A DNA stretch of 62,873 nucleotides from Actinomycetota bacterium (GCA_023489235.1 JAMDDE010000003.1:22555-85427); one strand, 5' to 3'; positions 22,058 to 60,628 are shown, counted from the first letter of the stretch. The notes: a model not told the origin generated them from the letters alone. Numbers and translations: made by a program.

Positions 22058-23215
22058 CTAACTGAGCCAGCGTTTTAGAAAGTACTTCTCGAAAGCAACT
22101 TTCCCCAGGTGCCACTGTATACCTGGCTGATAGAGTACGAAACTCGGCTCTCCTTCGGTATAAAGATTTCCATTAGCGAAACCAGCTTTATTACCACCGA
22201 TTTCTAGAAAACAAGCTCCCTTTCCAGTGAAAAGTTTTTCCTCACGATTGTGATGAAGGTCACGTGCTATCCGCGTTGCCACCACTTTAGCTTCTGCTTC
22301 CGCGAATACTCCTGCTTTAGGCACCATCTTCCCACCTCCTATTGGAATTTGGGTTACATCACCAATCGCGTATACTCCTGGTTGGGATGTGGACATAGTG
22401 AACTTGTTCACCGGTAGGTAACCACTCTCTGCCTCTAAGCCGGATCCAGCTAATGCATTGGGGGCCGTGTGGACAGGTATGCCAAGTATGATATCGGGAT
22501 TCCATTCTGTGCCATTGGAAAGAATGACCTTACTATCACGACTATCTAGTTTGTCAACGGTTATAGAGTGATACAGCTCAATACCCCTCTCAGCTAGCAT
22601 AGATGATATCTGCTCACCTATAGCTGGACCTGCAGTTGGCATGGGGTAGGGTTCTGGGGTGTAGACTCGAATCTCGGATCCCTTTCGTACTCCTCGTTTA
22701 CGAAGTATGTCATCTGCCAAGAAGGCTGCTTCGTAAGGTGCAGCAGGACATTTGTAAGGAAGGCTGGAGATCACTACCGCAACCCTCTTGACACCTCCCC
22801 TCCGTAGGCTTGCACCAGCGGATAGCGCCCCTTCCAATGTAAAGATGTTATGTGCAATCTCCTTGAACCCAGGAAGTCGTTCTGGCGCCAAGGCTGCACC
22901 AAGCGCAATTACCAACTGGTCGTAACCGAGCGCCCCCGAAGAGGTATACACAGTAGCAGAGGTGGTATCGATAGAGTTCACCTCTGCTTCGAGTATCTCG
23001 ATTCCTCGTTTGCGAAGGACTCGAATGTCCTTTTGGACCTGAGAGGGTGTACGATTTCCAGCCATGAGCCAGAGTAAAGAAGGCCCAAAAGTGTAAATAG
23101 GCTCACGCTCTATTATTATAATCCTATCTGAGGCATTTAGTTTCTTGCGAAGCTCCTTTGCGGTTACAATCCCGCCGGTCCCCCCTCCCAAGATAACCGT
23201 TGTGTTATATATCAT
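22058..23215 (-). CDS. Sulfide:quinone oxidoreductase / flavocytochrome c sulfide dehydrogenase-like flavoprotein
   Basis: GGGTGG, YKCPAAPYE, AIGD, PKAGVFA, GACFLE redox cysteines. Confidence 0.8.
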   Translation of the reverse strand: MIYNTTVILGGGTGGIVTAKELRKKLNASDRIIIIEREPIYTFGPSLLWLMAGNRTPSQVQKDIRVLRKRGIEILEAEVNSIDTTSATVYTSSGALGYDQLVIALGAALAPERLPGFKEIAHNIFTLEGALSAGASLRRGGVKRVAVVISSLPYKCPAAPYEAAFLADDILRKRGVRKGSEIRVYTPEPYPMPTAGPAIGEQISSMLAERGIELYHSITVDKLDSRDSKVILSNGTEWNPDIILGIPVHTAPNALAGSGLEAESGYLPVNKFTMSTSQPGVYAIGDVTQIPIGGGKMVPKAGVFAEAEAKVVATRIARDLHHNREEKLFTGKGACFLEIGGNKAGFANGNLYTEGEPSFVLYQPGIQWHLGKVAFEKYFLKRWLS

Positions 23216-23254
23216 TTCAGCTCCCTGCGATCGTTGTTTTTGTAAACCTAGGCT

Positions 23255-23605
23255 TCAAAAACTTATGATTTTGTCTGCCCATAGAGTCCAATCTGCCACT
23301 TCCTCCAAGCTTGATCTCCTGGCTGCTGGTAGAAGCATCTCATCAGTTATGCCTCTTGCATCCATACAAGTCCCGCAGCAGCATATCTCGGCCCCATGAC
23401 GGACCGTTGACTCTAACATTCGATCAAGTCGGTAGTAACCGTTGGGTAGTTGGTGTCCCCGGATGGCACAACCGACGGCATCCCCAAAGAGAAATATGCG
23501 CACCTCTGTCTCTTCTCGTCGGGATAGGGCTCCAGCGAGACGTATACCGTTGTAGGCACGCTCTGTTCCGTAAGGGGGATCGTGCAGAATGAACAGTATC
23601 TTCAT
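23255..23605 (-). CDS. DsrE/YchN-family sulfur relay protein
   Basis: PPYGTERAY, GDAV, CGTCMDARG. Confidence 0.88.
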   Translation of the reverse strand: MKILFILHDPPYGTERAYNGIRLAGALSRREETEVRIFLFGDAVGCAIRGHQLPNGYYRLDRMLESTVRHGAEICCCGTCMDARGITDEMLLPAARRSSLEEVADWTLWADKIISF

Positions 23606-24294
23606 GGTTGCGCTCCTAGAGACACAGGAAGGTTAGCCATACGCCATTCAGGAAGGCCGTCTATCAACCGCCTGACATGGAAGCCATGACTGCGTAGTAT
23701 CTCCATTGCTTGTGGAGCAAGCACACAGTGCGGTCCTCGGCAGTAAGCTACGATCTCCTTATCTTTGTCCAGATTGACCAGCTGTTCGTTGATCGTCTCC
23801 AAGGGCATAGAGAGTGCTCCTTTTATATGGGCTGCTACATATTCTTCAACCGGTCGTACGTCGATGATCACTGCATCGTCGTTCTCGATTAGCTGCAATA
23901 GCTCGTCGTGGCTCACCAATATTGTCCTGTCATCACTGTTGAATACCTCTGTAAGAATCTCTTTCACCTCTGCTAGGTGAGTGCTGGCGAGTTGTCGTAG
24001 CGAAGCAAGACATTTGGCAACATCCTCTCCCGAGAGGCGATAGATAATCTTGGTGCCTTGTCGATGTGACGCAACTAGTCGTGCTTGTCGAAGTACCTGA
24101 AGATGAGAGGAAGTGGTGGTCATGCTCATGTTGGCAGCTCGAGCTAGAGATTCTACTTCCCTTGGAGTTTGGTCTAACAGCTCGAGCAGTTCTATCCGAT
24201 GTGGATTGGCAAGAGCTTTGGCGATGCGAGCGAACTGTTCATAGAGAGCTACTTGGGTGTAAGTATCAGTATTATCTACTTCTCCAAAGATCAT
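23602..24294 (-). CDS. ArsR/SmtB regulator fused to rhodanese domain
   Basis: ALANPHRIELL, SSHLQVLR; DVRP..EY..HI.GA, YCRGPHC. Confidence 0.92.
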   Translation of the reverse strand: MIFGEVDNTDTYTQVALYEQFARIAKALANPHRIELLELLDQTPREVESLARAANMSMTTTSSHLQVLRQARLVASHRQGTKIIYRLSGEDVAKCLASLRQLASTHLAEVKEILTEVFNSDDRTILVSHDELLQLIENDDAVIIDVRPVEEYVAAHIKGALSMPLETINEQLVNLDKDKEIVAYCRGPHCVLAPQAMEILRSHGFHVRRLIDGLPEWRMANLPVSLGAQP

Positions 24295-25404: not shown

Positions 25405-26988
25405 TTGGATCTTTTCTTCGAACCTCTAACTCCCATATCGTTTCTCCAGCGCTCTGGCGAGGTTTTTGCTGACCGTATTGGCGTGATCGACGGCGAGCGA
25501 CGCTTCAGTTATGGAGAGTTCTACGAGCGTTGTAGGCGCTTAGCCGGAGCTCTCTCTGCAATGGGGGCGAGAGACGGTGAGCGTGTTGCCGTGCTGGCTC
25601 CTAACACCCATATGATGCTCGAAGCACACTATGGCGTGCCCATGGCCTCAGCTGTATTGGTTACTCTCAACACTCGTCTCAACACAGTTGAGCTCTCAGG
25701 AATCATAGAGCATTCCGGAGCCAACTACTTGTTGTACGACAGCGCCTTTAAAGAAAAAGCAGTTGAGATAGCTGACCGTTTGAAGACTGCTCGCGGAATT
25801 CGTTTGACTACGATCGAAGCAGGAAGCGATAATCGTACAAATCGTACAAGCCAGTACGAGGACCTGCTAGCTTCATCCCAGAGAGTAGAGACGCTGCCGG
25901 AGGTGGATGAAAGGGGTCTCCTATCCATTAACTACACTAGCGGTACGACCGGTGAGCCAAAAGGAGTCATGTACCACTACCGAGGTGCTTACCTTCAAGC
26001 TCTTTCTTTGGTCGCGCATACCAAGTTGGACGAAAGCTCAGTCATGCTGTGGACTTTGCCTATGTTCCACTGCAATGGTTGGTGCTTTACTTGGGCAGTT
26101 ACGGCCGCTGGAGCTACGCATGTGTGCATGAGGCGGCCGGATCCGTGGGAGGCATGGAGGTTGATACGCTCAGAAGGGGTCACTCACCTTTGTGGTGCCC
26201 CAACAGTCCTTTCGTCTCTGGCCAATGATTCTAACGCTGCCAAACAAGATCGCATGCTCAAGGTGTTTACGGGAGGAGCTCCGCCCTCTCCCTCTTTGTT
26301 GGAACAGTTGAGCTCTCTTGGAATTGAAGTGACTCACTCCTACGGGTTGACAGAGACATTTGGCCCTATCCTCATCTGCCAATGGAGGCCCGAGTGGGAT
26401 GATCTTCCAGTTGCCGAACAAGCTCGCCTGAAAGCTCGTCAAGGTGTAGCCCACCTAGCGGCAGTTCCACCGCGAGTGATCGACAGGGAGGGAAATGATG
26501 TACCTGCGGATGGCAAGAGCATTGGCGAGATAGTAGTGCGCGGAAACGTTGTTATGCGAGGTTATTACCGTAACCATGAAGCCACTGTCAAAGCAGCTCC
26601 TGATGGATGGTTTCGCACTGGCGACCTAGCTGTAGTACATCCCGATGGCTACATAGAGATACGTGATCGCTCTAAAGATATAATAATATCAGGGGGTGAG
26701 AACATAGCCTCCATAGAGGTTGAGCAGATACTTGCGAGCCATCCGGCTGTGTTGGAAGCAGCAGTTGTAGCTGCTCCCGATGTCCACTGGGGGGAGATCC
26801 CAGTGGCTTATGTAACCTTGCGTCCTGGTGAACATGTCTCCGAAGAGGACCTGATAGCTTATGCTCGTCAAAGGATGGCTCATTTCAAGGTTCCTAAACG
26901 GGTAGTGTTCGGGGATTTACCCAAGAACTCTACTGGCAAGATTTTGAAACACGAACTACGGCAGCGCTTATGGCAAGCACTTCAATAA
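25405..26988 (+). CDS. Acyl-CoA synthetase / AMP-binding ligase
   Basis: YTSGTTGEPKG, YGLTET, FRTGD, PKNSTGK. Confidence 0.93.
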   Translation: MDLFFEPLTPISFLQRSGEVFADRIGVIDGERRFSYGEFYERCRRLAGALSAMGARDGERVAVLAPNTHMMLEAHYGVPMASAVLVTLNTRLNTVELSGIIEHSGANYLLYDSAFKEKAVEIADRLKTARGIRLTTIEAGSDNRTNRTSQYEDLLASSQRVETLPEVDERGLLSINYTSGTTGEPKGVMYHYRGAYLQALSLVAHTKLDESSVMLWTLPMFHCNGWCFTWAVTAAGATHVCMRRPDPWEAWRLIRSEGVTHLCGAPTVLSSLANDSNAAKQDRMLKVFTGGAPPSPSLLEQLSSLGIEVTHSYGLTETFGPILICQWRPEWDDLPVAEQARLKARQGVAHLAAVPPRVIDREGNDVPADGKSIGEIVVRGNVVMRGYYRNHEATVKAAPDGWFRTGDLAVVHPDGYIEIRDRSKDIIISGGENIASIEVEQILASHPAVLEAAVVAAPDVHWGEIPVAYVTLRPGEHVSEEDLIAYARQRMAHFKVPKRVVFGDLPKNSTGKILKHELRQRLWQALQ

Positions 26989-28445
26989 GGAAGTTAGTGG
27001 TGGTCAACAGAGCTTTTCTGGATGCTCTGGTTGCAGCACTTCTTGAATACGGGTATCGGGTGCTGGGGCCAGTGTTCCAGAATGGCTCTATCGTGATCGA
27101 TGACCTCACTTCAACTGCAGATATGCCGGTGGGATGGACCGACGAGCAGTCCCCTGGCAACTATCGACTGTGCCACTCAGCTGATGGCCAATTGTTTGGT
27201 TGGACAGTGAGCCCTGCTTCTCCCAAGGCGCTGCTGTTTCCTCCTCGTGTCACTGTTTGGCAGAGAGGAGCTGGGAGAGATGATTTTTCTGTTCCTTTTG
27301 CCCAACCGGTAGCTATAACAGGTGCAACCAAATCAGCCATATCAACTGTATCCAAACCACAGAGCACTGGATCGACTGGGAAGGTGCTGTCGGATACTGA
27401 GTTGACCTTCTCAGCTTCAGGGACCACTCATTTCAACCCTCGGTCAAACAGAGACGACCGACACCTTCTGGCTCTAGTTGGGATACGCCCTTGTGAAGCA
27501 GCTGCCCTTGAAATCAATGATGCGGTTTTTATGAAGGGGAGTTTCCCAGACCCCTTCTACTGTGAGCGGAGAAGCGACATGTTCTTACTTGTAGCCGAAT
27601 GTGCCTCTTCAAACGCCAGTTGTTTCTGTGACTCGATGGGCGCGGGTCCAGGCATAGATAGCGGTTTCGATCTTGCTGTTACTGAGATGCTCGACGAGGA
27701 TGGAGAGTACTCATACTTTCTCAGGATCGGCTCGCAACGAGGGGAAGAGCTTTTCACTGTAGCTGTCGAGCAGGCTTCCAGTATTGGAGTCGGCACTGAT
27801 CCCAGTATTGAACCCAGCACTGGGATGGATAGAGGCGAAGGGGACGGAAAGGATATCCCAACTTTTGTCGAGTTATCGGACTTGTCCAACTCTGTATCCC
27901 AGAGTACCTCCATGCAACGAGCCTCTTGTTCCTTGAACTATTCGCTCGAAGAAGTGCTGGCTAAAAGGGATGCACAACTACAGCATGCCAAGGAGCTTCA
28001 AGTGGGAATGCATCCGAGGGTAGCGGAGTTGCTTCGGAGGAACTTGGATCACCCTATCTTCACGGATATCGCTGGTCGTTGCCTTGCCTGTGGCAATTGC
28101 ACCTCGGTCTGTCCAACCTGTTTCTGCTCTGATGTAGTGGACAAGAATGATATGCACGGCGCCATATCCAGAGAGCGTAGTTGGTCCTCCTGTTTCAACG
28201 CGGCCCACTCAGAGCTGCACGGTCAGCCAGTTAGGCACTCTGTAGCTTCACGGTACAGGCAATGGCTTACTCACAAGTTTTCAAATTGGTATGATCAATT
28301 TGGCACTTCAGGTTGTGTTGGATGTGGCCGATGCATTACGTGGTGCCCGGTCGGCATAGATGTTCGCCAAGAGGTTGCCGGGATTGCTTCTGACGCTGAC
28401 ATGAAAGGCGATATGCAAAGCACAGGAAGTCATGGTCCATCATGA
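26970..28445 (+). CDS. Group 3b [NiFe]-hydrogenase (sulfhydrogenase) beta subunit, 4Fe-4S, with two insertions
   Basis: CLACGNCTSVCPTCFC and GCVGCGRCITWCP; GIRPCE. Confidence 0.9.
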   Translation: MASTSIRKLVVVNRAFLDALVAALLEYGYRVLGPVFQNGSIVIDDLTSTADMPVGWTDEQSPGNYRLCHSADGQLFGWTVSPASPKALLFPPRVTVWQRGAGRDDFSVPFAQPVAITGATKSAISTVSKPQSTGSTGKVLSDTELTFSASGTTHFNPRSNRDDRHLLALVGIRPCEAAALEINDAVFMKGSFPDPFYCERRSDMFLLVAECASSNASCFCDSMGAGPGIDSGFDLAVTEMLDEDGEYSYFLRIGSQRGEELFTVAVEQASSIGVGTDPSIEPSTGMDRGEGDGKDIPTFVELSDLSNSVSQSTSMQRASCSLNYSLEEVLAKRDAQLQHAKELQVGMHPRVAELLRRNLDHPIFTDIAGRCLACGNCTSVCPTCFCSDVVDKNDMHGAISRERSWSSCFNAAHSELHGQPVRHSVASRYRQWLTHKFSNWYDQFGTSGCVGCGRCITWCPVGIDVRQEVAGIASDADMKGDMQSTGSHGPS

Positions 28446-28915
28446 GAGATCTTCCTATGGATGTACTTATCTCCCGTCATCCGTTGCTGGCCGGTCTTCC
28501 CAATGACATTCTCCTACTCCTTGCAGGCTGTGCGCGCAATGTCCCCTTTCACGCAGGCACCCTTCTCTTATCAGAAGGCGATACCGCTGATACCTTTTAC
28601 CTGATTCGTCGGGGGAGAGTGGGTATAGAAGTACACGATCCTCGGCGTGGAAGGGTGGTAGTGGAGACCGTAGGCCCAGGAAGCGTTGTAGGGTGGTCTT
28701 GGCTGTTCCCTCCCTATAGATGGCATTTCGATGCCCGCGCCATTGACGAGGTGGGTACGATAGCCCTGGATGGAGCTTGTCTGCGTACAAAGGCCGAAGC
28801 CGACCCTGTTGTAGGCTATGAGCTGATGAAACGCCTCTCGAACGTGCTGTTGGAACGTCTCCAGGCCACCAGAGTGAGATTACTTGATCTGTATGGTGAC
28901 GGAAAAGTCAGTTGA
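28442..28915 (+). CDS. Stand-alone cyclic nucleotide-binding (Crp-like) domain protein, no HTH
   Basis: EGDTADTFYLIRRGRV, GWSWLFPPYRW; ATGA overlap. Confidence 0.88.
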   Translation: MRDLPMDVLISRHPLLAGLPNDILLLLAGCARNVPFHAGTLLLSEGDTADTFYLIRRGRVGIEVHDPRRGRVVVETVGPGSVVGWSWLFPPYRWHFDARAIDEVGTIALDGACLRTKAEADPVVGYELMKRLSNVLLERLQATRVRLLDLYGDGKVS

Positions 28916-29792
28916 GCCTTTTAGAGGGCCAATTCCGGAGTCTGGAAGTCGCCACCCTCTGTTGCCTACTCCTTATAGGGTGGTAAAGCGGGTAGTAGAA
29001 ACCGACACTGTAGTCACCTTATTCTTGGAGGCATTGGAGGGGGGTAATTTAACCTTTCGTCCTGGTCAGTTCAATATGCTCACTGCTTTTGGGGTTGGGG
29101 AGATCGCTGTATCGATCAGCGGTGACCCCCTTGATGGAGGTCCTATCCGGCATACCATCGCTAGCGTGGGGGCGGTGAGCCACGCTCTATGCTCACTTAG
29201 GGTTGGGAGCCTAGTAGGTGTGCGTGGTCCATTCGGTAACGGCTGGGACCTTACTGGTGTCACTGGTATGGCTGGCTCGGCCACCCAGGACGTGGTTGTA
29301 GTGGCTGGTGGTGTCGGCTTAGCTCCTTTGAGACCTGCCGTATTGGAACTGTTGAAGATGAAGGAGGAAGGCAGGGGGCGTGTTGTTGTCTTGATAGGCT
29401 CCCGTTCACCCGATCAAGTACTGTTCAAGGAGGAATTGGACGTCTGGCGCACCAGAGGTGCACATGTGGAGGTGACAGTTGATCGTGCAGATGCCTCCTG
29501 GAGGGGGAGCGTAGGAGTGGTTACCTCTTTGATCAGCAGTGCACCATTTGACCCCCATGATGCATTTTCCCTCGTATGTGGGCCAGAGGTGATGATGCGG
29601 TTCACTGCTAGGGCATTATTGGACAAAGGGATGCACGAGGATAAGATCCAACTCTCCTTGGAAAGGAACATGCAATGCGGCATTGGATGGTGTGGCCACT
29701 GTCAGCTCGGCCCTTATCTGCTCTGTCGGGACGGCCCCGTTTTCCCCTATGGCGGAAGGTTGGCCGAATTGCTTGCCAAGCGTGAGCTTTGA
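28893..29792 (+). CDS. Group 3b hydrogenase gamma subunit (FAD/NAD(P)-binding, 2Fe-2S)
   Basis: PGQFNML, RGPFGNGW, AGGVGLAP, MQCGIGWCGHC...CRDGP. Confidence 0.92.
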   Translation: MVTEKSVEPFRGPIPESGSRHPLLPTPYRVVKRVVETDTVVTLFLEALEGGNLTFRPGQFNMLTAFGVGEIAVSISGDPLDGGPIRHTIASVGAVSHALCSLRVGSLVGVRGPFGNGWDLTGVTGMAGSATQDVVVVAGGVGLAPLRPAVLELLKMKEEGRGRVVVLIGSRSPDQVLFKEELDVWRTRGAHVEVTVDRADASWRGSVGVVTSLISSAPFDPHDAFSLVCGPEVMMRFTARALLDKGMHEDKIQLSLERNMQCGIGWCGHCQLGPYLLCRDGPVFPYGGRLAELLAKREL

Positions 29793-29804
29793 GGAGGTGA
29801 CCCA

Positions 29805-30653
29805 GTGGACATGGATAGGACTTCAACGGAAGGTGCTCGCCCACGTGTGGCAATATGGAAGCTGGCCTCCTGCGATGGATGCCAGCTCTCCCTATTGGAT
29901 CTGGAAGATGAACTACTCACTCTTGCTGATGTAGTTGACCTAGCTCATTTCACTGAGATGTCCAGGACTGATCTTGGGGGTCCATATGATCTGTCTTTCA
30001 TAGAGGGATCGGTGACCACCCCTCGAGACGAGGTACTGGTAGGAGAGGTACGCCAGATCTCTAGACGGCTAATTGCCATAGGTGCCTGTGCCGTTGCAGG
30101 AGGGATTCAATCCTTGCGCAACTATGCACCACCGGGCGAGTACTCGAGTGCTGTGTACGCACACCCCGAGTACCTGAGTTACTTGGATACTTCTATGCCG
30201 GTTTCGGCCTATGTAAAAGTTGATCTAGAGCTGCATGGCTGCCCGGTGGACCGCTATCAGCTCATGGAGGTCATCTCTGCCGAGTTGGTAAGCAGAAAGC
30301 CCGTGCTCCCTGCTTTCAGCGTGTGCCAGGAGTGCAAGGCAAGAGGTACGGTTTGCCTGCTCGTGTCCAAGAAGGAGCAGTGCCTTGGTCCTGTGACACG
30401 AGCGGGATGCGGCGCTATCTGTCCTGCTAGTGGTCGAGGATGTTACGGATGTTTTGGTCCTCAGGAGGCAGCCAATCCATCATCTTTGTCCATGCGATTT
30501 ATTGCTGACGGTGCAAGCTCTCTTCGTTTGTGGCACCTCTTCCATACCTTCAATTCTGCAGCTCCACCATTTTCCAAGGAGGGATTGAGATATCGCGATT
30601 CGGCCAGTTCGCATGAGGTCGAAGGTGTAGGAGGAGCCAGTTGTGACTCATAA
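29805..30653 (+). CDS. Group 3b hydrogenase small (delta) subunit
   Basis: SCDGCQ, GACA, GCP, VCQEC, CLGP, GCYGC. Confidence 0.92.
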   Translation: MDMDRTSTEGARPRVAIWKLASCDGCQLSLLDLEDELLTLADVVDLAHFTEMSRTDLGGPYDLSFIEGSVTTPRDEVLVGEVRQISRRLIAIGACAVAGGIQSLRNYAPPGEYSSAVYAHPEYLSYLDTSMPVSAYVKVDLELHGCPVDRYQLMEVISAELVSRKPVLPAFSVCQECKARGTVCLLVSKKEQCLGPVTRAGCGAICPASGRGCYGCFGPQEAANPSSLSMRFIADGASSLRLWHLFHTFNSAAPPFSKEGLRYRDSASSHEVEGVGGASCDS

Positions 30654-31977
30654 CCACCATGAAGAACGAGTATTCTCCATCGATGGGCTGGCCAGGGTGG
30701 AAGGAGAGGGATCGCTGCATTTGCGCTTGAGGAATGACCATGTTGAACAGGTGTCCCTGGAGATCTTCGAGCCACCTCGTTTTTTCGAGGCATTCTTGCG
30801 AGGTAGGGACTTCACTGAGGTTCCTGACATAACCGCTCGTATATGCGGGATATGTCCAGTTGCCTATCAGTTGAGTTCTACTGCGGCAATGGAGAGCGCT
30901 TGTGGAGTGGAGGTTTCCCAGCAAGTGGCAGCGGCCAGAAGGTTGTTGTACTGCGGAGAGTGGCTACAGAGCCATGCTCTGCATGTCTATCTCCTGCATG
31001 CCCCTGATTTCTTCGGGGTTGATGATGCTGTCCAGCTGGCTCGTCTGGATAGAGAGGCAGTGGAAAGAGGGCTGCGCATCAAGCGAACGGGTAATTTGAT
31101 CATGGAAACCATAGGTGGTAGGGCGGTGCACCCGGTGAATGTAGCGGTTGGTGGTTTTCATAGATCTCCTACCAGGTCAGAGGTCATATCACTAGCTGAG
31201 CCGCTCCGCAGGGCTTTGGATGATGCATTGGATACGGTCGACTGGGTGAGTAGCTTCGACTTCCCAGAACTGGAAAGGGAGTATCTCTTTGTTGCCTTGC
31301 GAGGAAACGGCAGCTACCCGATGGAATCAGGGAATGTAGCTTTGGGGGAAGGTCTTCAAGTAACCGCCAGGGATTTCGAGGCGCTAGTCATCGAAGAACA
31401 GGTGGAGTACTCTACGGCTTTGCATGCTCGCTTGAAGGGTGCTGCTGGCGATGGCTCTTATCTAACTGGACCGTTAGCCCGTTTTGCACTCAATGCAGAC
31501 CTGCTCACCCCGCTTGCTCGTCAGGCAGCCCATTCAGCAGGGATGGGAGCTACGACCGCCGAAGCTCTCTCTAGGTGTAATAACCCGTTCCGTTCGATTA
31601 TCGTGCGAGCCATTGAAATGGTTTTCGCTTGCGAGGAAGGGTTACGGTTAGTGGAGTCGTATGAGCCGCCTGATCCCCCAGCTGTTACCGTGGAGCCTAG
31701 GGCGGGTACGGGCGTAGGGATTACCGAGGCTCCTAGAGGACTTCTGCTCCATCGTTACGATATAGACGAGAGAGGTATCATACAGATGGCGCGTATAGTG
31801 CCTCCTACCTCGCAGAACCAATCGACCATTGAATCAGATCTAGTCGCAGTGGCACAAGAAGGAATTCAGCTCTCCGATGAGGAGTTGGGGTGGCGACTGG
31901 AACAAGCGGTGCGCAATCATGATCCTTGCATATCTTGTTCGGCTCACTTCCTGAATGTCACCTTGGAGCGAGGATGA
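30643..31977 (+). CDS. Group 3b [NiFe]-hydrogenase large (alpha) subunit
   Basis: RVEGEG, L1 RICGICPVAY, EAPRG, L2 DPCISCSAH plus short cleavable tail. Confidence 0.95.
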   Translation: MTHNHHEERVFSIDGLARVEGEGSLHLRLRNDHVEQVSLEIFEPPRFFEAFLRGRDFTEVPDITARICGICPVAYQLSSTAAMESACGVEVSQQVAAARRLLYCGEWLQSHALHVYLLHAPDFFGVDDAVQLARLDREAVERGLRIKRTGNLIMETIGGRAVHPVNVAVGGFHRSPTRSEVISLAEPLRRALDDALDTVDWVSSFDFPELEREYLFVALRGNGSYPMESGNVALGEGLQVTARDFEALVIEEQVEYSTALHARLKGAAGDGSYLTGPLARFALNADLLTPLARQAAHSAGMGATTAEALSRCNNPFRSIIVRAIEMVFACEEGLRLVESYEPPDPPAVTVEPRAGTGVGITEAPRGLLLHRYDIDERGIIQMARIVPPTSQNQSTIESDLVAVAQEGIQLSDEELGWRLEQAVRNHDPCISCSAHFLNVTLERG

Positions 31978-32477
31978 GTTCGATGATGGGGGGTTGTGAG
32001 GTTTATGGGTCGGTAGCCTTGGCTGGTGTTGGCAACCCCTACCGCCACGATGACGGTATAGGTTGTACCGTGACTGCTCTAGCCGCCGATGCATGTGCTG
32101 AACTCTACTATCTGGGATCATTTCTGCAGCCTATCGATTTGCTAGGCAGATGGAATACCACTCAGGAGGTGGTATTGGTTGATGCAATGTGTTCAGGGGC
32201 TACGCCGGGGTCGATCATCGAAGTCGAGATCGACACAGCTGAATTCATTTCTTCTATCGTTCATCGGAGCATCTCCCGGCCACCTCTGTCGAGCAGTCAT
32301 GGCCTAGGGATTCTAGAGGCTCTATCCATTGCTAGGGAGCTAGATGTACTACCAGCTCGTTTGCTGCTCATAGGTATAGAGGGCGCTGATTTCTCGGAAG
32401 GGGTTGGATTGAGCGAGGAAGTGAAAAAAAGCATACCCCAGGCCGTTGATCTAATCGTTTCTTTGGTCAGGAGATGA
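31974..32477 (+). CDS. Hydrogenase maturation protease
   Basis: GVGNPYRHDDGIG, VDA, SSHG; ATGA overlap with large subunit. Confidence 0.9.
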   Translation: MSSMMGGCEVYGSVALAGVGNPYRHDDGIGCTVTALAADACAELYYLGSFLQPIDLLGRWNTTQEVVLVDAMCSGATPGSIIEVEIDTAEFISSIVHRSISRPPLSSSHGLGILEALSIARELDVLPARLLLIGIEGADFSEGVGLSEEVKKSIPQAVDLIVSLVRR

Positions 32478-32483
32478 AATTGG

Positions 32484-32732
32484 ATGTGCATCAGTCGTTT
32501 CTACCAAGTCATATCCGTCAAGGGGAGCGAGCAATTGGTTGTCAATGACCTGTCGGGACGAGAGTCTTTGCTGTCCATGTTGGCTTGGACTGGTGAGCTG
32601 CCCAGTCAAGGCGATTGGATTGTTGCTCACAGTGGGTATGCATTGAACAAGGTTGATCGAACGGAGGCGGAGGTGGCAGTCAAGGAGTGGAGGCAAGCTG
32701 TAGCTATGCTCGGGGAGCAGACGGAACGATGA
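32484..32732 (+). CDS. hypC: HypC/HupF-family chaperone, divergent
   Basis: Met-Cys start, GDWIVAHSGYA; lacks usual MCxxxP proline. Confidence 0.78.
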   Translation: MCISRFYQVISVKGSEQLVVNDLSGRESLLSMLAWTGELPSQGDWIVAHSGYALNKVDRTEAEVAVKEWRQAVAMLGEQTER

Positions 32733-33733
32733 AAGTTTGGGAGAGACGTGCGGATGACTCCAGCTGGGGCGAAAAGCAACTTGGCACTCGTCGTGAAGAA
32801 CGATCTGGATTGCTACTTGCTTCTACAACTGCCCTGATAAGTGGCGTAGCGATTTTCGTGGACAGCTACGGGACCAAAGATTTTTCTTACCCGACTGTTT
32901 ACACTACGGCTAAGAATCTGGTAGCAGCTTTGTTGCTCTGTCTCTTCGTAGCGATCATGACATGGAGAAGACGTCAAGGCAGCAGCTTTGCTCCGGTAGC
33001 AACTCGTGGTGACGACAGGACGAAGGCTGTCTCGAGCCGTATACAACTTTTGTTCGGTTGCGCCTATGTGGGGATTGTAGGGGGAGGACTCGCCTTTGTC
33101 GCTTTCTTCGATGGTCTGTCGCGTACGCCACCTCTTCTAGCTGGATTCGAGCACGATACCTTGGTGGTCTGGGTGGCAATCATGGCCTTTGCATTTCTGG
33201 GCGAGCGACTGTCTCGTTGGAACATGGTTGCTATAGCTGTGTTGGTCGCTGGATCAGTGCTCGCAGGAGGAGGTGTTGGGCACTTGACTCTAGGGAGGGG
33301 GAGCCTGCTCATATTAGCAGCTACGGTAGCTTGGTCCATTGAGGTGGTGGTATCCAAGCGACTATTGAGATGGATAACCCCGACCGCTTTGGGCGCTGTG
33401 CGCATGGGAGTTGGTACTGTAGTGCTCTTTGGATATCTGGCTTACAGAGGGTACTTTGACTCCTTGTTTAGCATCGACAGTACTCAGCTGCTGTGGGCTA
33501 CTCTCACGGGCATGCTCCTGGCTGGCTATGTTGCTACATGGCTGGCTGCCCTGAAGCGTTCTCGGGCAGTGGACGTCACCTCTGTGCTGGTGGCTTCTGT
33601 CGTCGTAACGGCAGCGCTCTCTGCCCTCGATGGACATGTCCTGCACGCTCCCAGAATAGGAGGGTTAGTACTGGTTGCTCTGGGAGTAGGGGCAACCCTA
33701 TGGCTTCGAACACGACATAGGAGCATTGCATGA
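32729..33733 (+). CDS. EamA/DMT family transporter
   Basis: About 10 TM segments, FLGERL motif; ATGA overlaps on both sides. Confidence 0.85.
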   Translation: MKVWERRADDSSWGEKQLGTRREERSGLLLASTTALISGVAIFVDSYGTKDFSYPTVYTTAKNLVAALLLCLFVAIMTWRRRQGSSFAPVATRGDDRTKAVSSRIQLLFGCAYVGIVGGGLAFVAFFDGLSRTPPLLAGFEHDTLVVWVAIMAFAFLGERLSRWNMVAIAVLVAGSVLAGGGVGHLTLGRGSLLILAATVAWSIEVVVSKRLLRWITPTALGAVRMGVGTVVLFGYLAYRGYFDSLFSIDSTQLLWATLTGMLLAGYVATWLAALKRSRAVDVTSVLVASVVVTAALSALDGHVLHAPRIGGLVLVALGVGATLWLRTRHRSIA

Positions 33734-34566
33734 CCAGATCGCGGATGCAGACCCCATACTTATACCACGGGAGAGATCTCAGCGGTCCAGCTCGTTGGCC
33801 AGGTGGCCAACGAGTGCCCGGCCCTCTCCTGTTTGCTTGGTATGCTCACCCGCCCAACCAGCTAGGCTACTGTGGGCCAGCTGATCGTCATGCCTTTTCA
33901 GAGGCAACTTTTGATGGAGGGGATGTCAACGCTTTGGCACATATGGCGGTTGAATTCGATGGTGCCCTTCCATACCTTCGCCTAATTGCTGGGTGCAACG
34001 GTATAGATGACTTCTTGGCCTACAAAGTAGTGGAAGCCTATTGGGTTGGCAATGATCTGTTGAATCGGGTTAATCGTCAAGCGATGATAGCCATGGCTAG
34101 AGAGAGGCTTTCCGTGTTGGCAGGTTCGCGAGTACACATGCTGCTTGCTGCGGCAATGAGAGGCGTGGTTCACCACTCCTTTCATGTCTTGGCAGTTTAT
34201 CCATGGATCGGCCTACTGCGTTCTGGGATTAGAGAGCCATCCCTCAAAGTGATGGATAGTTGTCGAATTAGTTGGGGAAGAGTCGTTGCATTGCAAGGTG
34301 ACACTGCATTGGTCTCTCGTCGCCCTCTTTCCTTCGACGGTAACCACCTGTTGCTTGGCGAGGCGCAACTTTTCTCGGCTCGCTTCAGTACGACCAGAGC
34401 GTTGCTCTTCGATCGCCTCCTGGAAGGAGATACGGTATCGTTGCACTGGGGATGGGTATGTGATCGTCTGGAACCTCCTGCCCTCGCTTGGCTCAAGAGA
34501 TGTACGGAGATGAACCTCCGTGCAGTGAACGCTATACCAGCACCGGATCATCTGGTAGGTTCCTGA
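33730..34566 (+). CDS. DUF6390-family protein
   Basis: YAHPPNQLGYCGP, VVEAYWVGN, HHSFHV, CRISWG, SLHWGWVC. Confidence 0.8.
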   Translation: MTRSRMQTPYLYHGRDLSGPARWPGGQRVPGPLLFAWYAHPPNQLGYCGPADRHAFSEATFDGGDVNALAHMAVEFDGALPYLRLIAGCNGIDDFLAYKVVEAYWVGNDLLNRVNRQAMIAMARERLSVLAGSRVHMLLAAAMRGVVHHSFHVLAVYPWIGLLRSGIREPSLKVMDSCRISWGRVVALQGDTALVSRRPLSFDGNHLLLGEAQLFSARFSTTRALLFDRLLEGDTVSLHWGWVCDRLEPPALAWLKRCTEMNLRAVNAIPAPDHLVGS

Positions 34567-35042: not shown

Positions 35043-36008
35043 GTGAACGAAGTAGCTCACGAACTGGATCTCCTGGAGCACAAGTTGCTTTTTGTAACCG
35101 GTAAAGGTGGGGTAGGGAAAACTACCATCTCGACGGCCCTGGCTCTATTGGCTGCCAAGCGAGGCAAACGGACACTGCTTTGCGATGTGGATGCCAAAGG
35201 GGACATATCAGCCTTCTTCGAACAGTCTCCCTTGACATTTACGCCGAGAGAGATCGAGAAGGGCCTTTTTGCTATGGCCATGGATACGGAGGCTTCTTTG
35301 CGGGAGTACTTGCATCTCTATGCCAAGGTTCCTCTGCTGGGTTCCATAGGGCCCCTGGCCAAGATCTTTGACTTCGTGGCTACTGCTGCTCCTGGTGTCA
35401 AGGAAATCTTGGTAGTAGGCAAACTTTGTTGGGAGGTCAAGGAACGCCATTACGACCTCATCGTGGTCGATGCAGCAGCGAGTGGCCATATAGTAAGCCA
35501 GTTGATGGCTCCAGCAGCTATCAACTCATTGGTCAAGGTAGGGCTGATCAGGTCTCAGACCGACTGGATGCTGGAGATCCTAGCCGATCCCCTGAGGACA
35601 GCCTTGGCTATAGTGGCCACTCCTGAGGAGATGCCGGTTGCAGAGAGCATAGAGCTGGTAGAGAGAGTGGCTTCCGAAACCCCTGTATCCCTGTCCGCCG
35701 TGATCGTGAACAGGGTGCTTCCTGAACTCTTCGGCAACAAGGAGGAAGAAGTATTCGAAGCCATCTGCGAGCGTGAAAGAATGGCTGAGCTCAATCGCCT
35801 GCTGGACGGTGACGTTGCTCCCGTTATGGAAGCCGCTAGATTGGCAGTGACCATGCGCAGGACGCGAGCGGCTCACTTGGAACGATTGAAGCAAGCATTA
35901 GGCAACCAAGTTCCGATGCTGATGATACCAGAGTTGTTCACGAGGACTATGGGTAGACGAAGCATTACTCAGGTTGCTATGGCCTGTGGGGAGGAGCTTG
36001 GCTATTGA
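35043..36008 (+). CDS. ArsA/Get3-like ATPase (actinobacterial pair, first member)
   Basis: GKGGVGKTT deviant Walker A; single domain. Confidence 0.88.
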   Translation: MNEVAHELDLLEHKLLFVTGKGGVGKTTISTALALLAAKRGKRTLLCDVDAKGDISAFFEQSPLTFTPREIEKGLFAMAMDTEASLREYLHLYAKVPLLGSIGPLAKIFDFVATAAPGVKEILVVGKLCWEVKERHYDLIVVDAAASGHIVSQLMAPAAINSLVKVGLIRSQTDWMLEILADPLRTALAIVATPEEMPVAESIELVERVASETPVSLSAVIVNRVLPELFGNKEEEVFEAICERERMAELNRLLDGDVAPVMEAARLAVTMRRTRAAHLERLKQALGNQVPMLMIPELFTRTMGRRSITQVAMACGEELGY

Positions 36009-37252
36009 CCCAGAAAAGACCCAAGGAGACGACATCCTCTTCAGGAAGGGAGAGGCAGGAAGCCAGTTCTTCTCGTCATTCGTTCGTTCCCCCGGCAAGA
36101 GAGGGAAGCCTTTTGGCCAAATTAATTGCATCTCACGAGATAGTCATAGCCTGTGGACCAGGAGGAGTGGGGAAGACCACTACAGCGGCTGCTCTTGGGC
36201 TCATGGCATCCTTGGCTGATCGCGGACGGGTATTAGTGCTGACCGTGGATCCCGCCAAGAGGTTGGCCTCAGCGCTTGGTCTGAGTGGGGTAGGCAATGA
36301 AGAGCATCGGGTTCCAGATGACGTTCTTTGGACGGCAGGGCTGGCTCCTAGGGGAGAGCTATGGGTGGCCATGTTGGACACCAAGGAATCCTGGGATTCC
36401 TTGGTCCATCGCTACGCCCCTGACGAGAAGACAGCATCAAGGATACTTGCTAATCCCTTGTACCAAAATATCTCCGGTCAGTTCGTACAGAGCCATGATT
36501 ACATAGCCATGGAAAGGCTTTACGACATTCACTTGGAAGGCAGGTACGATCTCATCGTTATCGACACCCCCCCAAGTCGTAACGCACTCGATTTCCTTTC
36601 TGCTCCTCAAAGGATGGCAGATTTCTTTTCCAGTCGATTCCTACGTTGGCTGGTGATACCCTATCGTTCTCGCTTGTTGAATATTGCTTCACGTCCCTTT
36701 TACCAGGTAGCGGATCGTGTTCTGGGTACCCAGTTCCTCTCGGACATATCAGAGTTCTTCATGCTTTTCCAAGCGATGTATGAGGGATTCGTACAGCGAG
36801 CAGAGGCGGTCAAGAAGTTACTCAAGGATGACCGGACTACTTTCATAGTAGTAAGCACCTTGGAGCCAGCGCCAGCGAGGGAGGCTGAGCTGTTCGTCCA
36901 AGAACTTTCCAGACGAGAGCTGGATCTAGGGGCGGTTGTCTTGAACAAAGTTCTACCCAGTTATTTGCGTGATCCGCATGCCAACAAGATCGCTGAACGC
37001 ATGAGGCGCGATGCTCCTACCTTGGCTGCCAAGCTTTCCTTGCCGGTTGGTTATGCAGAGCATGCCGATAGGGTGCTTACCGAGGTGGCGGAGAGTTTCT
37101 CCAACTTCTCTATCGTTGCGTATAGAGAGGCGGCACAGAAAGAAGGACTTGGGAACTATTCGGATATCATTGCTTCTGTGCCGTTTTTCGATACCGATAT
37201 ATTTGATTTAGCTGGGCTTGCTCGGCTCGGTGAACGTCTTTTTGATCGGTGA
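36005..37252 (+). CDS. ArsA/Get3-like ATPase (second member)
   Basis: GPGGVGKTT, TVDPAKRLA, DTPPSR. Confidence 0.88.
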   Translation: MTQKRPKETTSSSGRERQEASSSRHSFVPPAREGSLLAKLIASHEIVIACGPGGVGKTTTAAALGLMASLADRGRVLVLTVDPAKRLASALGLSGVGNEEHRVPDDVLWTAGLAPRGELWVAMLDTKESWDSLVHRYAPDEKTASRILANPLYQNISGQFVQSHDYIAMERLYDIHLEGRYDLIVIDTPPSRNALDFLSAPQRMADFFSSRFLRWLVIPYRSRLLNIASRPFYQVADRVLGTQFLSDISEFFMLFQAMYEGFVQRAEAVKKLLKDDRTTFIVVSTLEPAPAREAELFVQELSRRELDLGAVVLNKVLPSYLRDPHANKIAERMRRDAPTLAAKLSLPVGYAEHADRVLTEVAESFSNFSIVAYREAAQKEGLGNYSDIIASVPFFDTDIFDLAGLARLGERLFDR

Positions 37253-53327: not shown

Positions 53328-54750
53328 GGCTCTACGCGATCAGGCGTGGGGAGCGTCCCCGTATTCTTGTTGTTTGACGAGTTTCCCATTTAACTCCGGA
53401 ATGCAGCAAAAGGCCTACGCGATAGTTGTCGAAGTTCCGAAATCCATGGCCTATTCTGCGGATTTTCTCAGTGATGAGGTTCTGGGCCTCAAGCGGTCCA
53501 GTTGAGATTTAGGTCACATGGAAGTTGAGGATCTGTTCCTCCCAGCGAGAGATAGTCCTCGATAAGCGGTGAGCTCAACTACGTCTGCTTGAGCTCGTAG
53601 CTGTAAAACTCTTGGAGTCGGGAATATGCCTTTGTCAGGGTTTCTGCGACCTACACCTCATAGAGGAGTTTCTTGGCCAAGATACAAGCTGCTACCTCTC
53701 CGTCTGGATCCCCTTTTACAAGACAGGCGAGGAGCTTTCCAACTTGGCGCTCGGTTAATCGCTCCCACCCCCTTAACATAAGACGTCTGGTGCGATAAAG
53801 GGGGTCAAGCTTGCGCCCCCGGTGGCCCAGTACGGACTGGCTGGAGCTTGTTAAGCGACATTATCCACCATGGCTTGGTAAGCCTTAGCGCGTGGAAGTG
53901 GTCCACGGTAACGGTGACGTCGGGGAGGACTCCAAGGATGCCTCGGAGGTACCCAATATGGGGATCTATGGCCACTGCCTCGATCCGCTGGCGCCAGGCA
54001 GGGGGTCTCTCGGTAAGCCAGGAGGCAACCTCGTCTGCGGTTCTTCCTCTCATGACATCGAGGAGCTCTCCGGTGGCGATGTCGAGGAAAATTCTGGCAT
54101 AGAGGCTGTGGTGGTGCTTGCTGGCAGAGGCCACCTTGTGGCTGTCGATGCCTAGGGCACTTATCCCCTGGATGCGCCCTTAATCATCTACTAGGGGCTT
54201 TCCGTGACGTCGCACACATTCCATGGCACATGCCCAGCTGACCCCGAACTCTTTGGCCACCTGGGCGATACTGTGGCCATCCTCGCCCACTCTGCGACAG
54301 ATCTCCTTCGCTGCCCTGGCGGTGAGGGACCCTTCTACCTCGGGTGCTCCTCGGTGAAGCTCTTGGCCCCACAGTCAAGGTTCCTACAGATCCACCGGCG
54401 CTTTTTCCACACAAGGCGTACTGGCGCTCTACCAAAGGGCAGGTCTCTTATCTGGACTTCGCTTCTACCATGCGCAGTGCCTTGACTTCGAAGCTAGGAC
54501 AGCTGGCCTCATCGGCACTCGTCTCCAGAAGTATCCACACCTCACCGTCCTCTTTTGTCTGGGATAACACGAGAAATCCCCCCATGCCAAGCAGTGCGGT
54601 TGGGTCTTCACTATGGTAACTTATGCCCTGCGTCCTTTCGTTTCTCGTTGCTCGTAACAACAAGAATTGGGGATGCAGGGCCCCCTAGTGGTGGATACCT
54701 ATGAGCGCGTCACCGATCTAGCGCCTACCCACGCCGGAACGCGAAGAGCC
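53328..54750 (-). mobile_element. ISL3-family IS (1423 bp), transposase pseudogenized
   Basis: Terminal IRs GGCTCTACGCGATCAGGCGTGGG / GGCTCTTCGCGTTCCGGCGTGGG (3 mismatches); fragments VAIDP, VDHFH, GFRNFDNYR in separate frames; no target duplication. Confidence 0.9.
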
Positions 54751-60400: not shown

Positions 60401-60628
60401 GTGAGGATGGCCAATCAAATTGCCGCCAATTTCCAGCACTATCCATTCGATAAGGCTGTGGAGGCAGTAAGGGATCACTTGAAAATGTTCTGGGCCCCTT
60501 CAATGCGATCCATTCTTCTCGGTATTCTGGGTGAACTGAATGAACAAGAACTGAATGCACAAGGCATTGCTCCACTCGTGATTGCTGCCGGAAAGAAGTT
60601 GCGCAGCGAGCATCGTGATCTTGGATGA
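57452..60628 (+). CDS. Formate dehydrogenase alpha subunit (FdsA, Mo-bis-MGD, Cys ligand) with fused C-terminal FdsD-like domain
   Basis: Fe-S motifs, CGYCGVGC, CARVCH, LRGQNNVQG, CPEYKVTAV; then RMANQIAANF...HLKMFWAPSMR. Confidence 0.92.
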   Translation: MMTKGGDRKAVMTRVGGLWKEIDLATPAPESHFGEPLEDVAVEIDGISVVVAQGTSVLRAAALAGIDIPRLCATDTLRAFGSCRLCLVEIEGLSGTPASCTTPVRPGMKVKTQTARLARLRRQVMELYISDHPLDCLTCAANGDCELQRVAGSVGLREVRYGYAGANHLGDERDESNPYFTFDPSKCIVCSRCIRACEEIQGSFALALKDRGFASRVSPGPKGKFFDSECVSCGACVQTCPTGSLEEKSVIELGIPQRTVVTTCGYCGVGCSFKAELKGDELVRMVPYKDGAANNGHSCVKGRFAWGYVNHKDRVLKPAIRENITDPWQEVSFEEAIEFTAKRLLDIQGRYGVGSIGGITSSRCTNEEVYVVQKLVRAAFGNNNVDTCARVCHSPTGFGLKQSFGTSAGTQDFASVEYADLIMVIGANPTEAHPVFASRIKRRLRSGARLIVVDPRTTDLVRSPHIQASCHLQLRPGSNVALVNSMAHVVVTEGLVDKTFIEERCDWDDFVKWRQFITSDEYSPEVTEAITGVPADQVREAARLYATATNSAIYYGLGVTEHSQGSTTVIGLANLAMATGNIGRAGVGVNPLRGQNNVQGSSDMGSFPHEFPGYRHVGDEAVRSVFERAWGRELDPEPGLRIPNMFDAALEGSFKALFIQGEDLAQSDPNSHHVREALASLELCVVQDLFLNETSAFAHVFLPGTSFLEKDGTFTNAERRINRVRPVMPPRSGKHEWEIVCELATAMGYPMRYDDASQIMDEIAALTPSFAGVSFAKLDELGSLQWPCNDAAPKGTPIMHVNGFVRGKGKFVETPFVPTEERTTKAAEGHPLLLTTGRTLVQYNVGTQTRRTENIRWYPEDVLQINPLDAAERGVKDGDLVLVESRINKTRLRAQCTERVPPGVVYTTFHHPVTNTNSLTTELSDWATNCPEYKVTAVRVVKVSSSEPIAVPTPAELMLGRQERVPRGSIDASASLSTSRPDIVRMANQIAANFQHYPFDKAVEAVRDHLKMFWAPSMRSILLGILGELNEQELNAQGIAPLVIAAGKKLRSEHRDLG

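Follow-up and report, generated by a model that had tools for sequence, protein, structure and literature searches.

DUF6390 as a candidate two-domain auxiliary protein of [NiFe]-hydrogenase maturation with a HypC-like C-terminal domain

The 62,873-nucleotide stretch of Actinomycetota DNA analysed here (GCA_023489235.1 JAMDDE010000003.1:22555-85427; hereafter the window) contains a [NiFe]-hydrogenase operon whose last gene encodes a protein of the Pfam family DUF6390. We conclude that DUF6390 probably assists in building hydrogenases and has been overlooked in this role. On balance, we think it likely to be an auxiliary protein of [NiFe]-hydrogenase maturation, with two domains, that belongs to the HypC superfamily and works alongside HypCDEF, and we propose that it represents a new architecture, in which a HypC-derived domain is fused to a new helical domain.

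The maturation of [NiFe]-hydrogenases is regarded as a well-mapped six-protein pathway, known mainly from E. coli, Ralstonia and Thermococcus. DUF6390 is a large family, found after a dedicated HypC or at the end of hypFCDE in lineages with atmospheric-H2-consuming hydrogenases. If it is required, the maturation schemes for Hhy, Huc and the actinobacterial 3b enzymes are incomplete, and the heterologous production of these O2-insensitive enzymes may need the gene. The Pfam family itself gains a testable functional assignment.

The C-terminal domain of DUF6390 is HypC-like

The protein matched the DUF6390 profile with 258.1 bits (cut-off 25) over positions 3-240 of 244. A full-length AlphaFold2 model, built on an alignment with 91 homologues, had a mean predicted local distance difference test score (pLDDT) of 81.5 and a predicted template modelling (pTM) score of 0.83. 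It consisted of a helical domain up to residue 178, a seven-strand barrel (residues 181-246) and a long helix (249-267). The gene and its two domains are as follows.

33730..34566, + strand: DUF6390 protein of 278 aa, proposed HypC-superfamily maturation factor (Pfam PF19927, E 1e-76)
33817..34260, + strand: N-terminal all-helical domain of DUF6390, residues about 30-177, with C48 (YCGP) and H149/H152 (HHSFH) (AlphaFold2 secondary structure)
34261..34530, + strand: C-terminal HypC-like oligonucleotide/oligosaccharide-binding (OB) barrel and helix of DUF6390, residues 178-267, with C178, H239 and C244 (hhalign, domain model, Foldseek)

The C-terminal domain was compared with HypC by hhalign. 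For the domain we used an alignment of 61 sequences that was more diverse than the full-length one and had window residues 176-278 as its first row; HypC was represented by 43 members from related loci. The two alignments matched with a probability of 90.1%, an E-value of 1.6e-6 and a score of 37.8, and none of 32 controls (2 reversed and 30 column-shuffled) came close, their scores being 14.3 or less. C178 was placed on Cys2 of HypC and H239 on the conserved HypC histidine. Further along, GDTVSLHWGWV lay over GDWIVAHSGYA, the conserved stretches so paired being GDxVSLHW and GDWVxVHxG, and the helix that follows lay over the HypC helix.

Modelled alone, the domain had a pLDDT of 89.4, with strands at residues 6-71 and a helix at 74-92 of the modelled segment. 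When this model was searched with Foldseek against 350,542 chains of the Protein Data Bank (PDB), the top four matches were all T. kodakarensis HypC, either free or in HypCD or HypCDE complexes, with E-values of 3.7e-3 to 8.4e-3 and template modelling (TM) scores, normalized by target, of 0.60-0.84. Among them, 3vyr_A had an E-value of 3.7e-3, 2z1c_B an E-value of 5.0e-3 and a TM score by target of 0.70, and 3vyt_A and 3vys_A a TM score by target of 0.84; another HypC chain, 3vyu_A, stood at rank 22 with a root-mean-square deviation of 2.1 Å. Comparison of the isolated domains with Pfam at E-values up to 10 gave PF01455 (HupF_HypC) as the commonest non-self match (9 of 61, best E 0.014).

An earlier note, made from the sequence of the window, had remarked that the C-terminus of DUF6390 echoes the HypC pattern and had suggested comparing this third of the protein with HypC by Foldseek and profile methods. 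That comparison did reveal an OB-fold likeness, with HypC chains in the first to fourth places, and the echo goes beyond chance, as judged by the hhalign result and its 32 controls. The homology of the DUF6390 C-terminal domain with HypC is thus well supported. We also searched for stand-alone or split DUF6390 domains; this search returned 34 short matches, of which the 8 that were inspected looked like truncated or frameshifted pieces rather than free domains.

Cysteine and histidine residues are conserved in both domains

Conservation was assessed in 202 sequences, comprising locus open reading frames (ORFs) with a profile hidden Markov model (HMM) score above 250, the window protein and database proteins of 240-300 aa. 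Three residues of the HypC-like domain, C178, H239 and C244, were invariant (202/202). In the helical domain, H149 was found in 201 sequences and C48 in 200, followed by H152 (186) and C89 (145). The strings YCGP, HHSFH, CRISWGRV and GDTVSLHWGWVC, picked out previously, were all found in the window protein. C48 lies in the motif PPNxLGYCGP, close to residues 42-45, for which the model had a pLDDT below 50. Candidate metal ligands had already been suspected in DUF6390, and the near-invariance of C48 and H149, as well as of C178, H239 and C244, is in keeping with this. Since these five cysteine and histidine residues are spread over both domains, a metal site to which both contribute is suggested. 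The N-terminal domain on its own, compared with Atlas structures, gave only DUF6390 clusters above a TM score of 0.5 and no usable feature match.

DUF6390 closes a nine-gene hydrogenase operon

The DUF6390 gene is the last of nine genes that form a single tightly packed operon on the + strand (26970-34566). The eight genes that precede it are listed below.

26970..28445, + strand: hydrogenase beta-type subunit, 4Fe-4S dicluster, sulfhydrogenase HydB/ShyB-like (Pfam Fer4_22, 3.5e-31; best NCBIfam models ShyB/HydB, below cut-offs)
28442..28915, + strand: cyclic-nucleotide-binding domain protein within the structural operon (Pfam cNMP_binding, 2.2e-12)
28884..29792, + strand: hydrogenase gamma-type subunit, FAD/NAD(P)-binding, Fe-S (Pfam NAD_binding_1 and DHODB_Fe-S_bind; NCBIfam cytochrome-c3 hydrogenase gamma / ShyC-like)
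29805..30653, + strand: [NiFe]-hydrogenase small (delta) subunit (Pfam Oxidored_q6, 4.9e-20; NCBIfam HydD/ShyD-like)
30643..31977, + strand: [NiFe]-hydrogenase large (alpha) subunit, group 3b-type (Pfam NiFeSe_Hases, 1.9e-28; NCBIfam ShyA, 3.2e-81, and HydA, 1.4e-69, both below cut-off)
31974..32477, + strand: hydrogenase maturation endopeptidase (Pfam HycI, 1.7e-10; TIGR00072, 83.1 bits, above the cut-off of 47.45)
32484..32732, + strand: divergent HypC of 82 aa (Pfam HupF_HypC, 4.3e-8; 33.6 bits, cut-off 28.5)
32729..33733, + strand: EamA/drug-metabolite transporter (DMT)-family membrane transporter (Pfam EamA, 5.9e-24, in two stretches)

The gene coordinates agree with the previous description of the operon end as four tightly linked genes with three ATGA overlaps. 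These overlaps are at the junctions between the large subunit and the protease, between HypC and EamA, and between EamA and DUF6390; the protease and HypC genes are separated by a 6-nt gap. For all four structural subunits the best NCBIfam models were those of sulfhydrogenases (group 3b; Shy/Hyd), every match being below the equivalog cut-off. The translation of the large subunit contains the motifs RICGIC and DPCISCSAH and ends in a C-terminal tail of 9 residues on which the protease would act. With its active-site motifs and short C-terminal tail thus kept, this subunit should need the normal cofactor and the normal cleavage.

The HypC encoded in the operon reads MCISRF...GDWIVAHSGYAL. As had been stated before, it keeps Met-Cys at residues 1-2 and the histidine (His49), and it has lost the proline of MCxxxP, the N-terminal motif of HypC, position 6 being Phe. 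It scored 30.9 bits with TIGR00074, below the cut-off of 48. Pro6 was present in only 2 of 43 HypCs from the 3b-type loci described below, compared with all 26 from 1h-type loci. This distribution indicates a dedicated HypC lineage associated with 3b-type clusters rather than decay in this one genome.

DUF6390 accompanies hydrogenase genes in other genomes

A database search yielded 4747 family members at E <= 0.001, and at least 597 matching stretches were found in species-representative genomes. The best 80 of these loci were examined with flanks of up to 10 kb on each side. Their ORFs were clustered, the 45 most widespread clusters were named by Pfam, and HMMs were mapped on the six-frame ORFs. 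Hydrogenase clusters were found in 67 of the 80 loci, 44 being 3b-type and 23 1h-type, labels that rest on gene layout and family matches and not on a hydrogenase classifier. Together with two plasmid hyp operons (see below), these counts sustain the link between DUF6390 and [NiFe]-hydrogenase genes that had been drawn from the window. The family extends over at least four phyla and several hydrogenase classes, occurring in Actinomycetota, Chloroflexota and Dormiibacterota, and in Sulfobacillus.

In the 3b-type loci the gene order was as in the window. One of the 44 (L025) has its DUF6390 ORF cut by a contig end; among the 43 with an intact ORF, 40 had HypC at a distance of up to 1.3 kb and 36 had the protease at up to 2.5 kb. 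The order in the 1h-type loci was HypB, small subunit with NiFe_hyd_SSU_C, large subunit of about 600 aa, NifU-like protein, DUF5947, DUF6084, protease, HypC and DUF6390; of these 23 loci, 20 had HypC and 21 had the protease within the same limits of 1.3 and 2.5 kb, respectively. Such an arrangement is that of group 1h (Hhy) clusters, with the conserved hypotheticals of the hhaABC type mentioned in bioRxiv 10.1101/457697. Overall, real HypC genes adjoined DUF6390 in 65 of the 79 loci with a DUF6390 ORF, and in 13 loci DUF6390 overlapped the upstream HypC or EamA gene by 4 or 8 nt. A candidate gene in high-GC DNA was also seen between DUF6084 and the protease of 1h-type clusters (L049:7363-8886); its 507-aa ORF has no Pfam or NCBIfam match and belongs to a cluster present in 19 loci.

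The transporter gene differs between the two types of locus. EamA adjoined DUF6390 in 37 of the 43 intact 3b-type loci and in none of the 23 1h-type loci, and we therefore consider it an optional add-on; it is a lineage-specific companion of 3b-type clusters and not a core part of the system. That EamA moves a metal or a thiol ligand is a guess, and the family is not known to have a metal substrate. Among the longer DUF6390 matches, 8 of 11 were EamA+DUF6390 fusions, to which P0068 can be added. P0068 and P0121 are full-length fusions that cover the whole DUF6390 profile; several others cover it in part and may be assembly or frameshift artefacts. Beside DUF6390 in 12 of the 23 1h-type loci there is instead a divergent ATP-binding cassette (ABC) importer, with its ATPase within 1.2 kb. 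This importer (e.g. L049:10777-14571, - strand) is made up of a TOBE-domain ATPase, a permease of double length and a binding protein. Its identification as a ferric-iron importer was considered and dropped, all NCBIfam matches being below cut-off.

DUF6390 paralogues are found in canonical hyp operons

As the earlier note had pointed out, hypA, hypB, hypD, hypE and hypF are missing from the window. None was detected in Pfam scans of 12 and 43 ORF translations from it, and HypB and HypF HMMs and HypD and HypE phmmer queries had no match among its six-frame ORFs of at least 50 aa. Eight HypA/B/D/E/F queries taken from two plasmids likewise had no match in the window by phmmer or tblastn. HypB or HypF was not found within 10 kb in any of the 44 3b-type loci either, and the lack of nearby hyp genes is therefore normal for the clade to which the window operon belongs.

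In other lineages DUF6390 is part of hyp operons. The order hypF-hypC-hypD-hypE-DUF6390 was observed in three loci (second paralogue at L049:19552-20283, L072:19536-20273 and L060:8981-9733), and in two more (L043 and L052) DUF6390 lies immediately before hypF. Some genomes thus have two copies, one after protease-HypC and one closing hypF-hypC-hypD-hypE; in L060 the second paralogue is in tandem with the first. A Mycobacterium plasmid carries a Huc-like (2a-like) cluster followed by hypF, HypC, a 236-aa HypC-domain protein, SIS, hypE, HypC, hypD and DUF6390. On a Sulfobacillus acidophilus plasmid, hypF-C-D-E, tatA and DUF6390 stand beside a cytochrome-b-linked membrane-bound group 1 hydrogenase with HypA/HypB.

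A tree of 62 rows was computed, 23 of the 85 DUF6390 ORFs having been left out because their N-terminus was not matched by the trimming pattern. The window protein was grouped, with good support, in a clade of 29 rows that included 28 of 3b-type, and the structural-operon and hyp-operon copies of one genome fell in different, well-supported clades. The labels describing genomic context changed 12 times along the tree, as compared with a mean of 23.8 after shuffling, and 0 of 200 shuffles gave a value as low. Since relatives share both label and taxonomy, this clustering shows only that the paralogues are old.

Because hypD, hypE and hypF share operons with DUF6390 in other genomes, we regard DUF6390 as an addition to the canonical pathway and not as a replacement for it. 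The earlier idea of a non-canonical system is therefore not supported, DUF6390 elsewhere ending or adjoining hypF-hypC-hypD-hypE. The auxiliary role for which the earlier note had left room is the one that we assign to it, because canonical hyp genes accompany the family in other genomes.

Proposed role of DUF6390 and alternative explanations

In the scheme that we favour, residues about 178-267 would act as a HypC-type OB barrel with its C-terminal helix, provided with both HypC signature residues and the additional C244, and the helical domain (about 30-177) would contribute C48, situated in a low-confidence loop, and H149. The resulting Cys/His site may hold iron, possibly as the Fe(CN)2CO unit or a precursor of it; alternatively, it may hold on to the apo-large subunit. 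The gene, placed last in hydrogenase operons, is translationally coupled to that of the endopeptidase and, directly or via EamA, to that of the dedicated HypC paralogue. DUF6390 would act with this neighbouring HypC, in addition to the HypCDEF encoded elsewhere. Prediction of a complex between the window HypC and DUF6390 lent weak support to such a partnership (score 0.44; best control 0.06, own alignments), with at least 63% of contacts agreeing between runs and a partner pLDDT of at least 82; when this method was calibrated on 80 solved complexes, 58 attained the mark, as did 2 of 110 mismatched pairs. Of the earlier description of DUF6390 as a HypC-fold scaffold or partner, the HypC-like fold is therefore upheld, and the partnership with HypC is weakly supported by this prediction.

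Several observations weigh against this scheme. With the less diverse full-length alignment, the hhalign probability was only 14%, the register being already Cys-on-Cys. No Foldseek match of the domain reached E <= 0.001, and ribosomal uS17 OB folds came close behind HypC. The 50 matches that Foldseek listed for the full-length model comprised only ribosomal uS17/eS11 OB folds and did not include HypC; it was for this reason that the domain was modelled alone. A search of PDB sequences with the full-length family profile did not find HypC and gave three chance-level matches (E 0.39-0.86), and none of the 61 isolated domains came near the 28.5-bit cut-off of PF01455. The cysteine of DUF6390 is internal, as residue 178 of a 278-aa two-domain protein, and there is no free N-terminal cysteine such as HypC has once its Met is removed. 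As to the predicted complex, at scores of 0.60 or less just 7 of the 80 solved complexes attained the mark, as did both of the mismatched pairs that passed. Furthermore, 13 of the 80 loci had no hydrogenase structural gene within 10 kb (5 of them are cut short upstream and 5 have an adjacent HypC), and L032, L038 and L040 contained none of the hydrogenase-linked families searched for. A search of the literature, supplements aside, retrieved no publication on DUF6390 and no experiment on any member. The consulted parts of PMC6883350, PMC13332983, bioRxiv 10.1101/457697 and PMC2799521 include unnamed hypothetical genes in these clusters, none of which could be linked to DUF6390; the gene may appear in figure S1 of PMC6883350.

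We also considered a broader role, in which DUF6390 is an unrecognised general maturation factor, an extra 'Hyp', in Actinomycetota, Chloroflexota and their relatives, serving Hhy and Huc as well. Its single-chain Cys3His2 site, drawn from the HypC-derived and the helical domain, would then supply iron or carry the shielded cofactor. This is a tentative extension that we think rather unlikely to hold; if true, it would offer a handle on the source of the active-site iron and on the survival of the cofactor during assembly in air. A little more doubtful still is the possibility that DUF6390 is a metal-free holdase, whose HypC-like domain docks on the unprocessed large subunit and keeps it open or shields it from O2 until nickel has been inserted and the tail cleaved, the Cys/His residues being structural or used for docking. 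HypC-family proteins do bind the large-subunit precursor, structural operons end with DUF6390 coupled to the endopeptidase and to a dedicated HypC, and the family occurs mostly in aerobic soil lineages, all of which would suit a holdase. Yet five Cys/His residues invariant across both domains are seen more typically where a metal or a cluster is bound, and the second paralogue, being part of hypFCDE operons, is distant from the structural genes.

If DUF6390 took iron or nickel from the adjacent transporter (EamA in 3b-type loci, the ABC importer in 1h-type loci) and passed it on to HypC/HypD or HypA/HypB, this would account for the frequency with which these transporters are found next to it (37/43 and 12/23, respectively) and for the existence of EamA+DUF6390 fusion proteins. 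However, no substrate can be assigned to the ABC importer from its sub-threshold NCBIfam matches, EamA proteins are not known to carry a metal, and six 3b-type loci as well as both plasmid loci lack an adjacent transporter. The fusions, for their part, are assembly singletons that could be frameshift artefacts of overlapping genes. We consider such a hand-over of metal improbable. It appears more improbable again that the likeness to HypC is a generic OB-fold resemblance and that DUF6390, without being a homologue of HypC, has another role, for instance a regulatory one. The Foldseek E-values of only about 4e-3, with uS17 OB folds scoring almost equally, and the sub-threshold matches of single sequences to the Pfam HypC family would be expected in that case. 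Against it stand the 90% hhalign probability with Cys and His in register and clean controls, the first to fourth ranks of HypC chains, and the presence of real HypC genes beside DUF6390 in 65 of 79 loci. Least probable of all, in our view, is that protease, HypC, EamA and DUF6390 constitute a self-sufficient non-canonical system replacing HypD, HypE and HypF in this organism. The lack of hypA/B/D/E/F in the 63 kb window, and of HypB and HypF within 10 kb of the 44 3b-type loci, speaks for it. On the other hand, hypF, hypC, hypD and hypE are in one operon with DUF6390 in at least five loci of other lineages, and the proteins of the module show no likeness in Pfam or NCBIfam to the carbamoyl or cyanide chemistry of HypE/HypF. 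Moreover, the active-site Cys motifs of the large subunit are the standard ones, and these imply a standard Fe(CN)2CO site.

Comparison with known maturation proteins

HypC, HybG and HupF (PF01455) are the Fe(CN)2CO-carrying chaperones of [NiFe]-hydrogenase maturation, which bind HypD and bring this unit to the large-subunit precursor. The C-terminal domain of DUF6390 shares their barrel-plus-helix topology, with the essential Cys and the conserved His aligned, and DUF6390 keeps the same company, namely the endopeptidase, hyp genes and structural genes. It differs from them in having a helical domain of about 150 residues ahead of the barrel, so that its Cys is residue 178 instead of residue 2, as well as about 16 residues inserted into the barrel and the extra invariant C244. 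Furthermore, no DUF6390 domain reaches the PF01455 cut-off, whereas the members of the family proper are single-domain proteins of about 70-110 aa.

In aerobic Proteobacteria, HupF/HoxL and HupK/HoxV provide an extra HypC paralogue and a scaffold. DUF6390 resembles HupF/HoxL in that, besides the canonical HypC of the hyp operon, a further protein of HypC type is encoded together with the structural genes of hydrogenases made in the presence of O2, and the 1h-type loci show the same two-HypC layout. HupK and HoxV are large-subunit-like proteins; in contrast, the N-terminal domain of DUF6390 matched no known fold. The phylogenetic range is also different, DUF6390 being found in Actinomycetota, Chloroflexota, Dormiibacterota and Sulfobacillus and not in these proteobacterial systems.

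In the HypC-HypD complex (PDB 3vyr and related entries), the Cys of the OB domain (Cys2 of HypC) and a Cys of HypD hold the Fe(CN)2CO iron unit. A single DUF6390 chain might offer a comparable arrangement, with C178, H239 and C244 on one side and C48 and H149 on the other. Yet a PDB profile search, Foldseek and an Atlas search found no HypD likeness in the N-terminal domain, DUF6390 lacks a HypD-like [4Fe-4S] motif set, and operons that contain DUF6390 retain hypD.

Another long chain ending in a HypC domain is encoded by the Mycobacterium plasmid (L081:10070-10780), in the same operon as a DUF6390 gene. It is a 236-aa protein of the 'HypC/HybG/HupF family' with PF01455 at residues 187-235, its last approximately 50 residues matching the HypC profile from position 8 onward. 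That it shares the N-terminal domain of DUF6390 was ruled out by hhalign (probability 0.3%), in which only the GD..VH stretch was matched.

Other features of the operon and of the window

The cyclic-nucleotide-binding gene, located between those of the beta-type and gamma-type subunits, had a homologue in 43 of the 44 3b-type loci; its product therefore seems to be a regulatory or additional subunit that is conserved in this 3b lineage. The beta-type subunit of the window has 491 aa, about 100 residues above the median of its relatives (394 aa), and contains Ser/Thr/Gly-rich stretches ahead of its Fer4_22 domain (residues 370-463).

A promoter and terminator scan 3' of the operon gave no sites. 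Directly downstream (35043-37252, + strand) are genes for two ArsA/Get3-type ATPases, for which the best matches were the mycobacterial BagA and BagB models, below cut-off. They are followed by a PHP histidinol-phosphatase-like gene and by a PdtaS-type histidine kinase gene, with no evident link to hydrogenase. Upstream of the operon, on the - strand (22058-24294), lies a sulfur-handling trio consisting of an ArsR-type helix-turn-helix/rhodanese fusion, DsrE and a pyridine-nucleotide-disulfide oxidoreductase. An ISL3-family transposase fragment of 109 aa, covering profile positions 9-90 of 240 and probably a remnant, is found at 53805-54134 (- strand). Finally, an NAD-linked formate-dehydrogenase-like pair is encoded at 55263-60628 (+ strand), one gene specifying a fused NuoE-NuoF-type protein and the second a 1058-aa molybdopterin subunit that ends in an FdsD domain.

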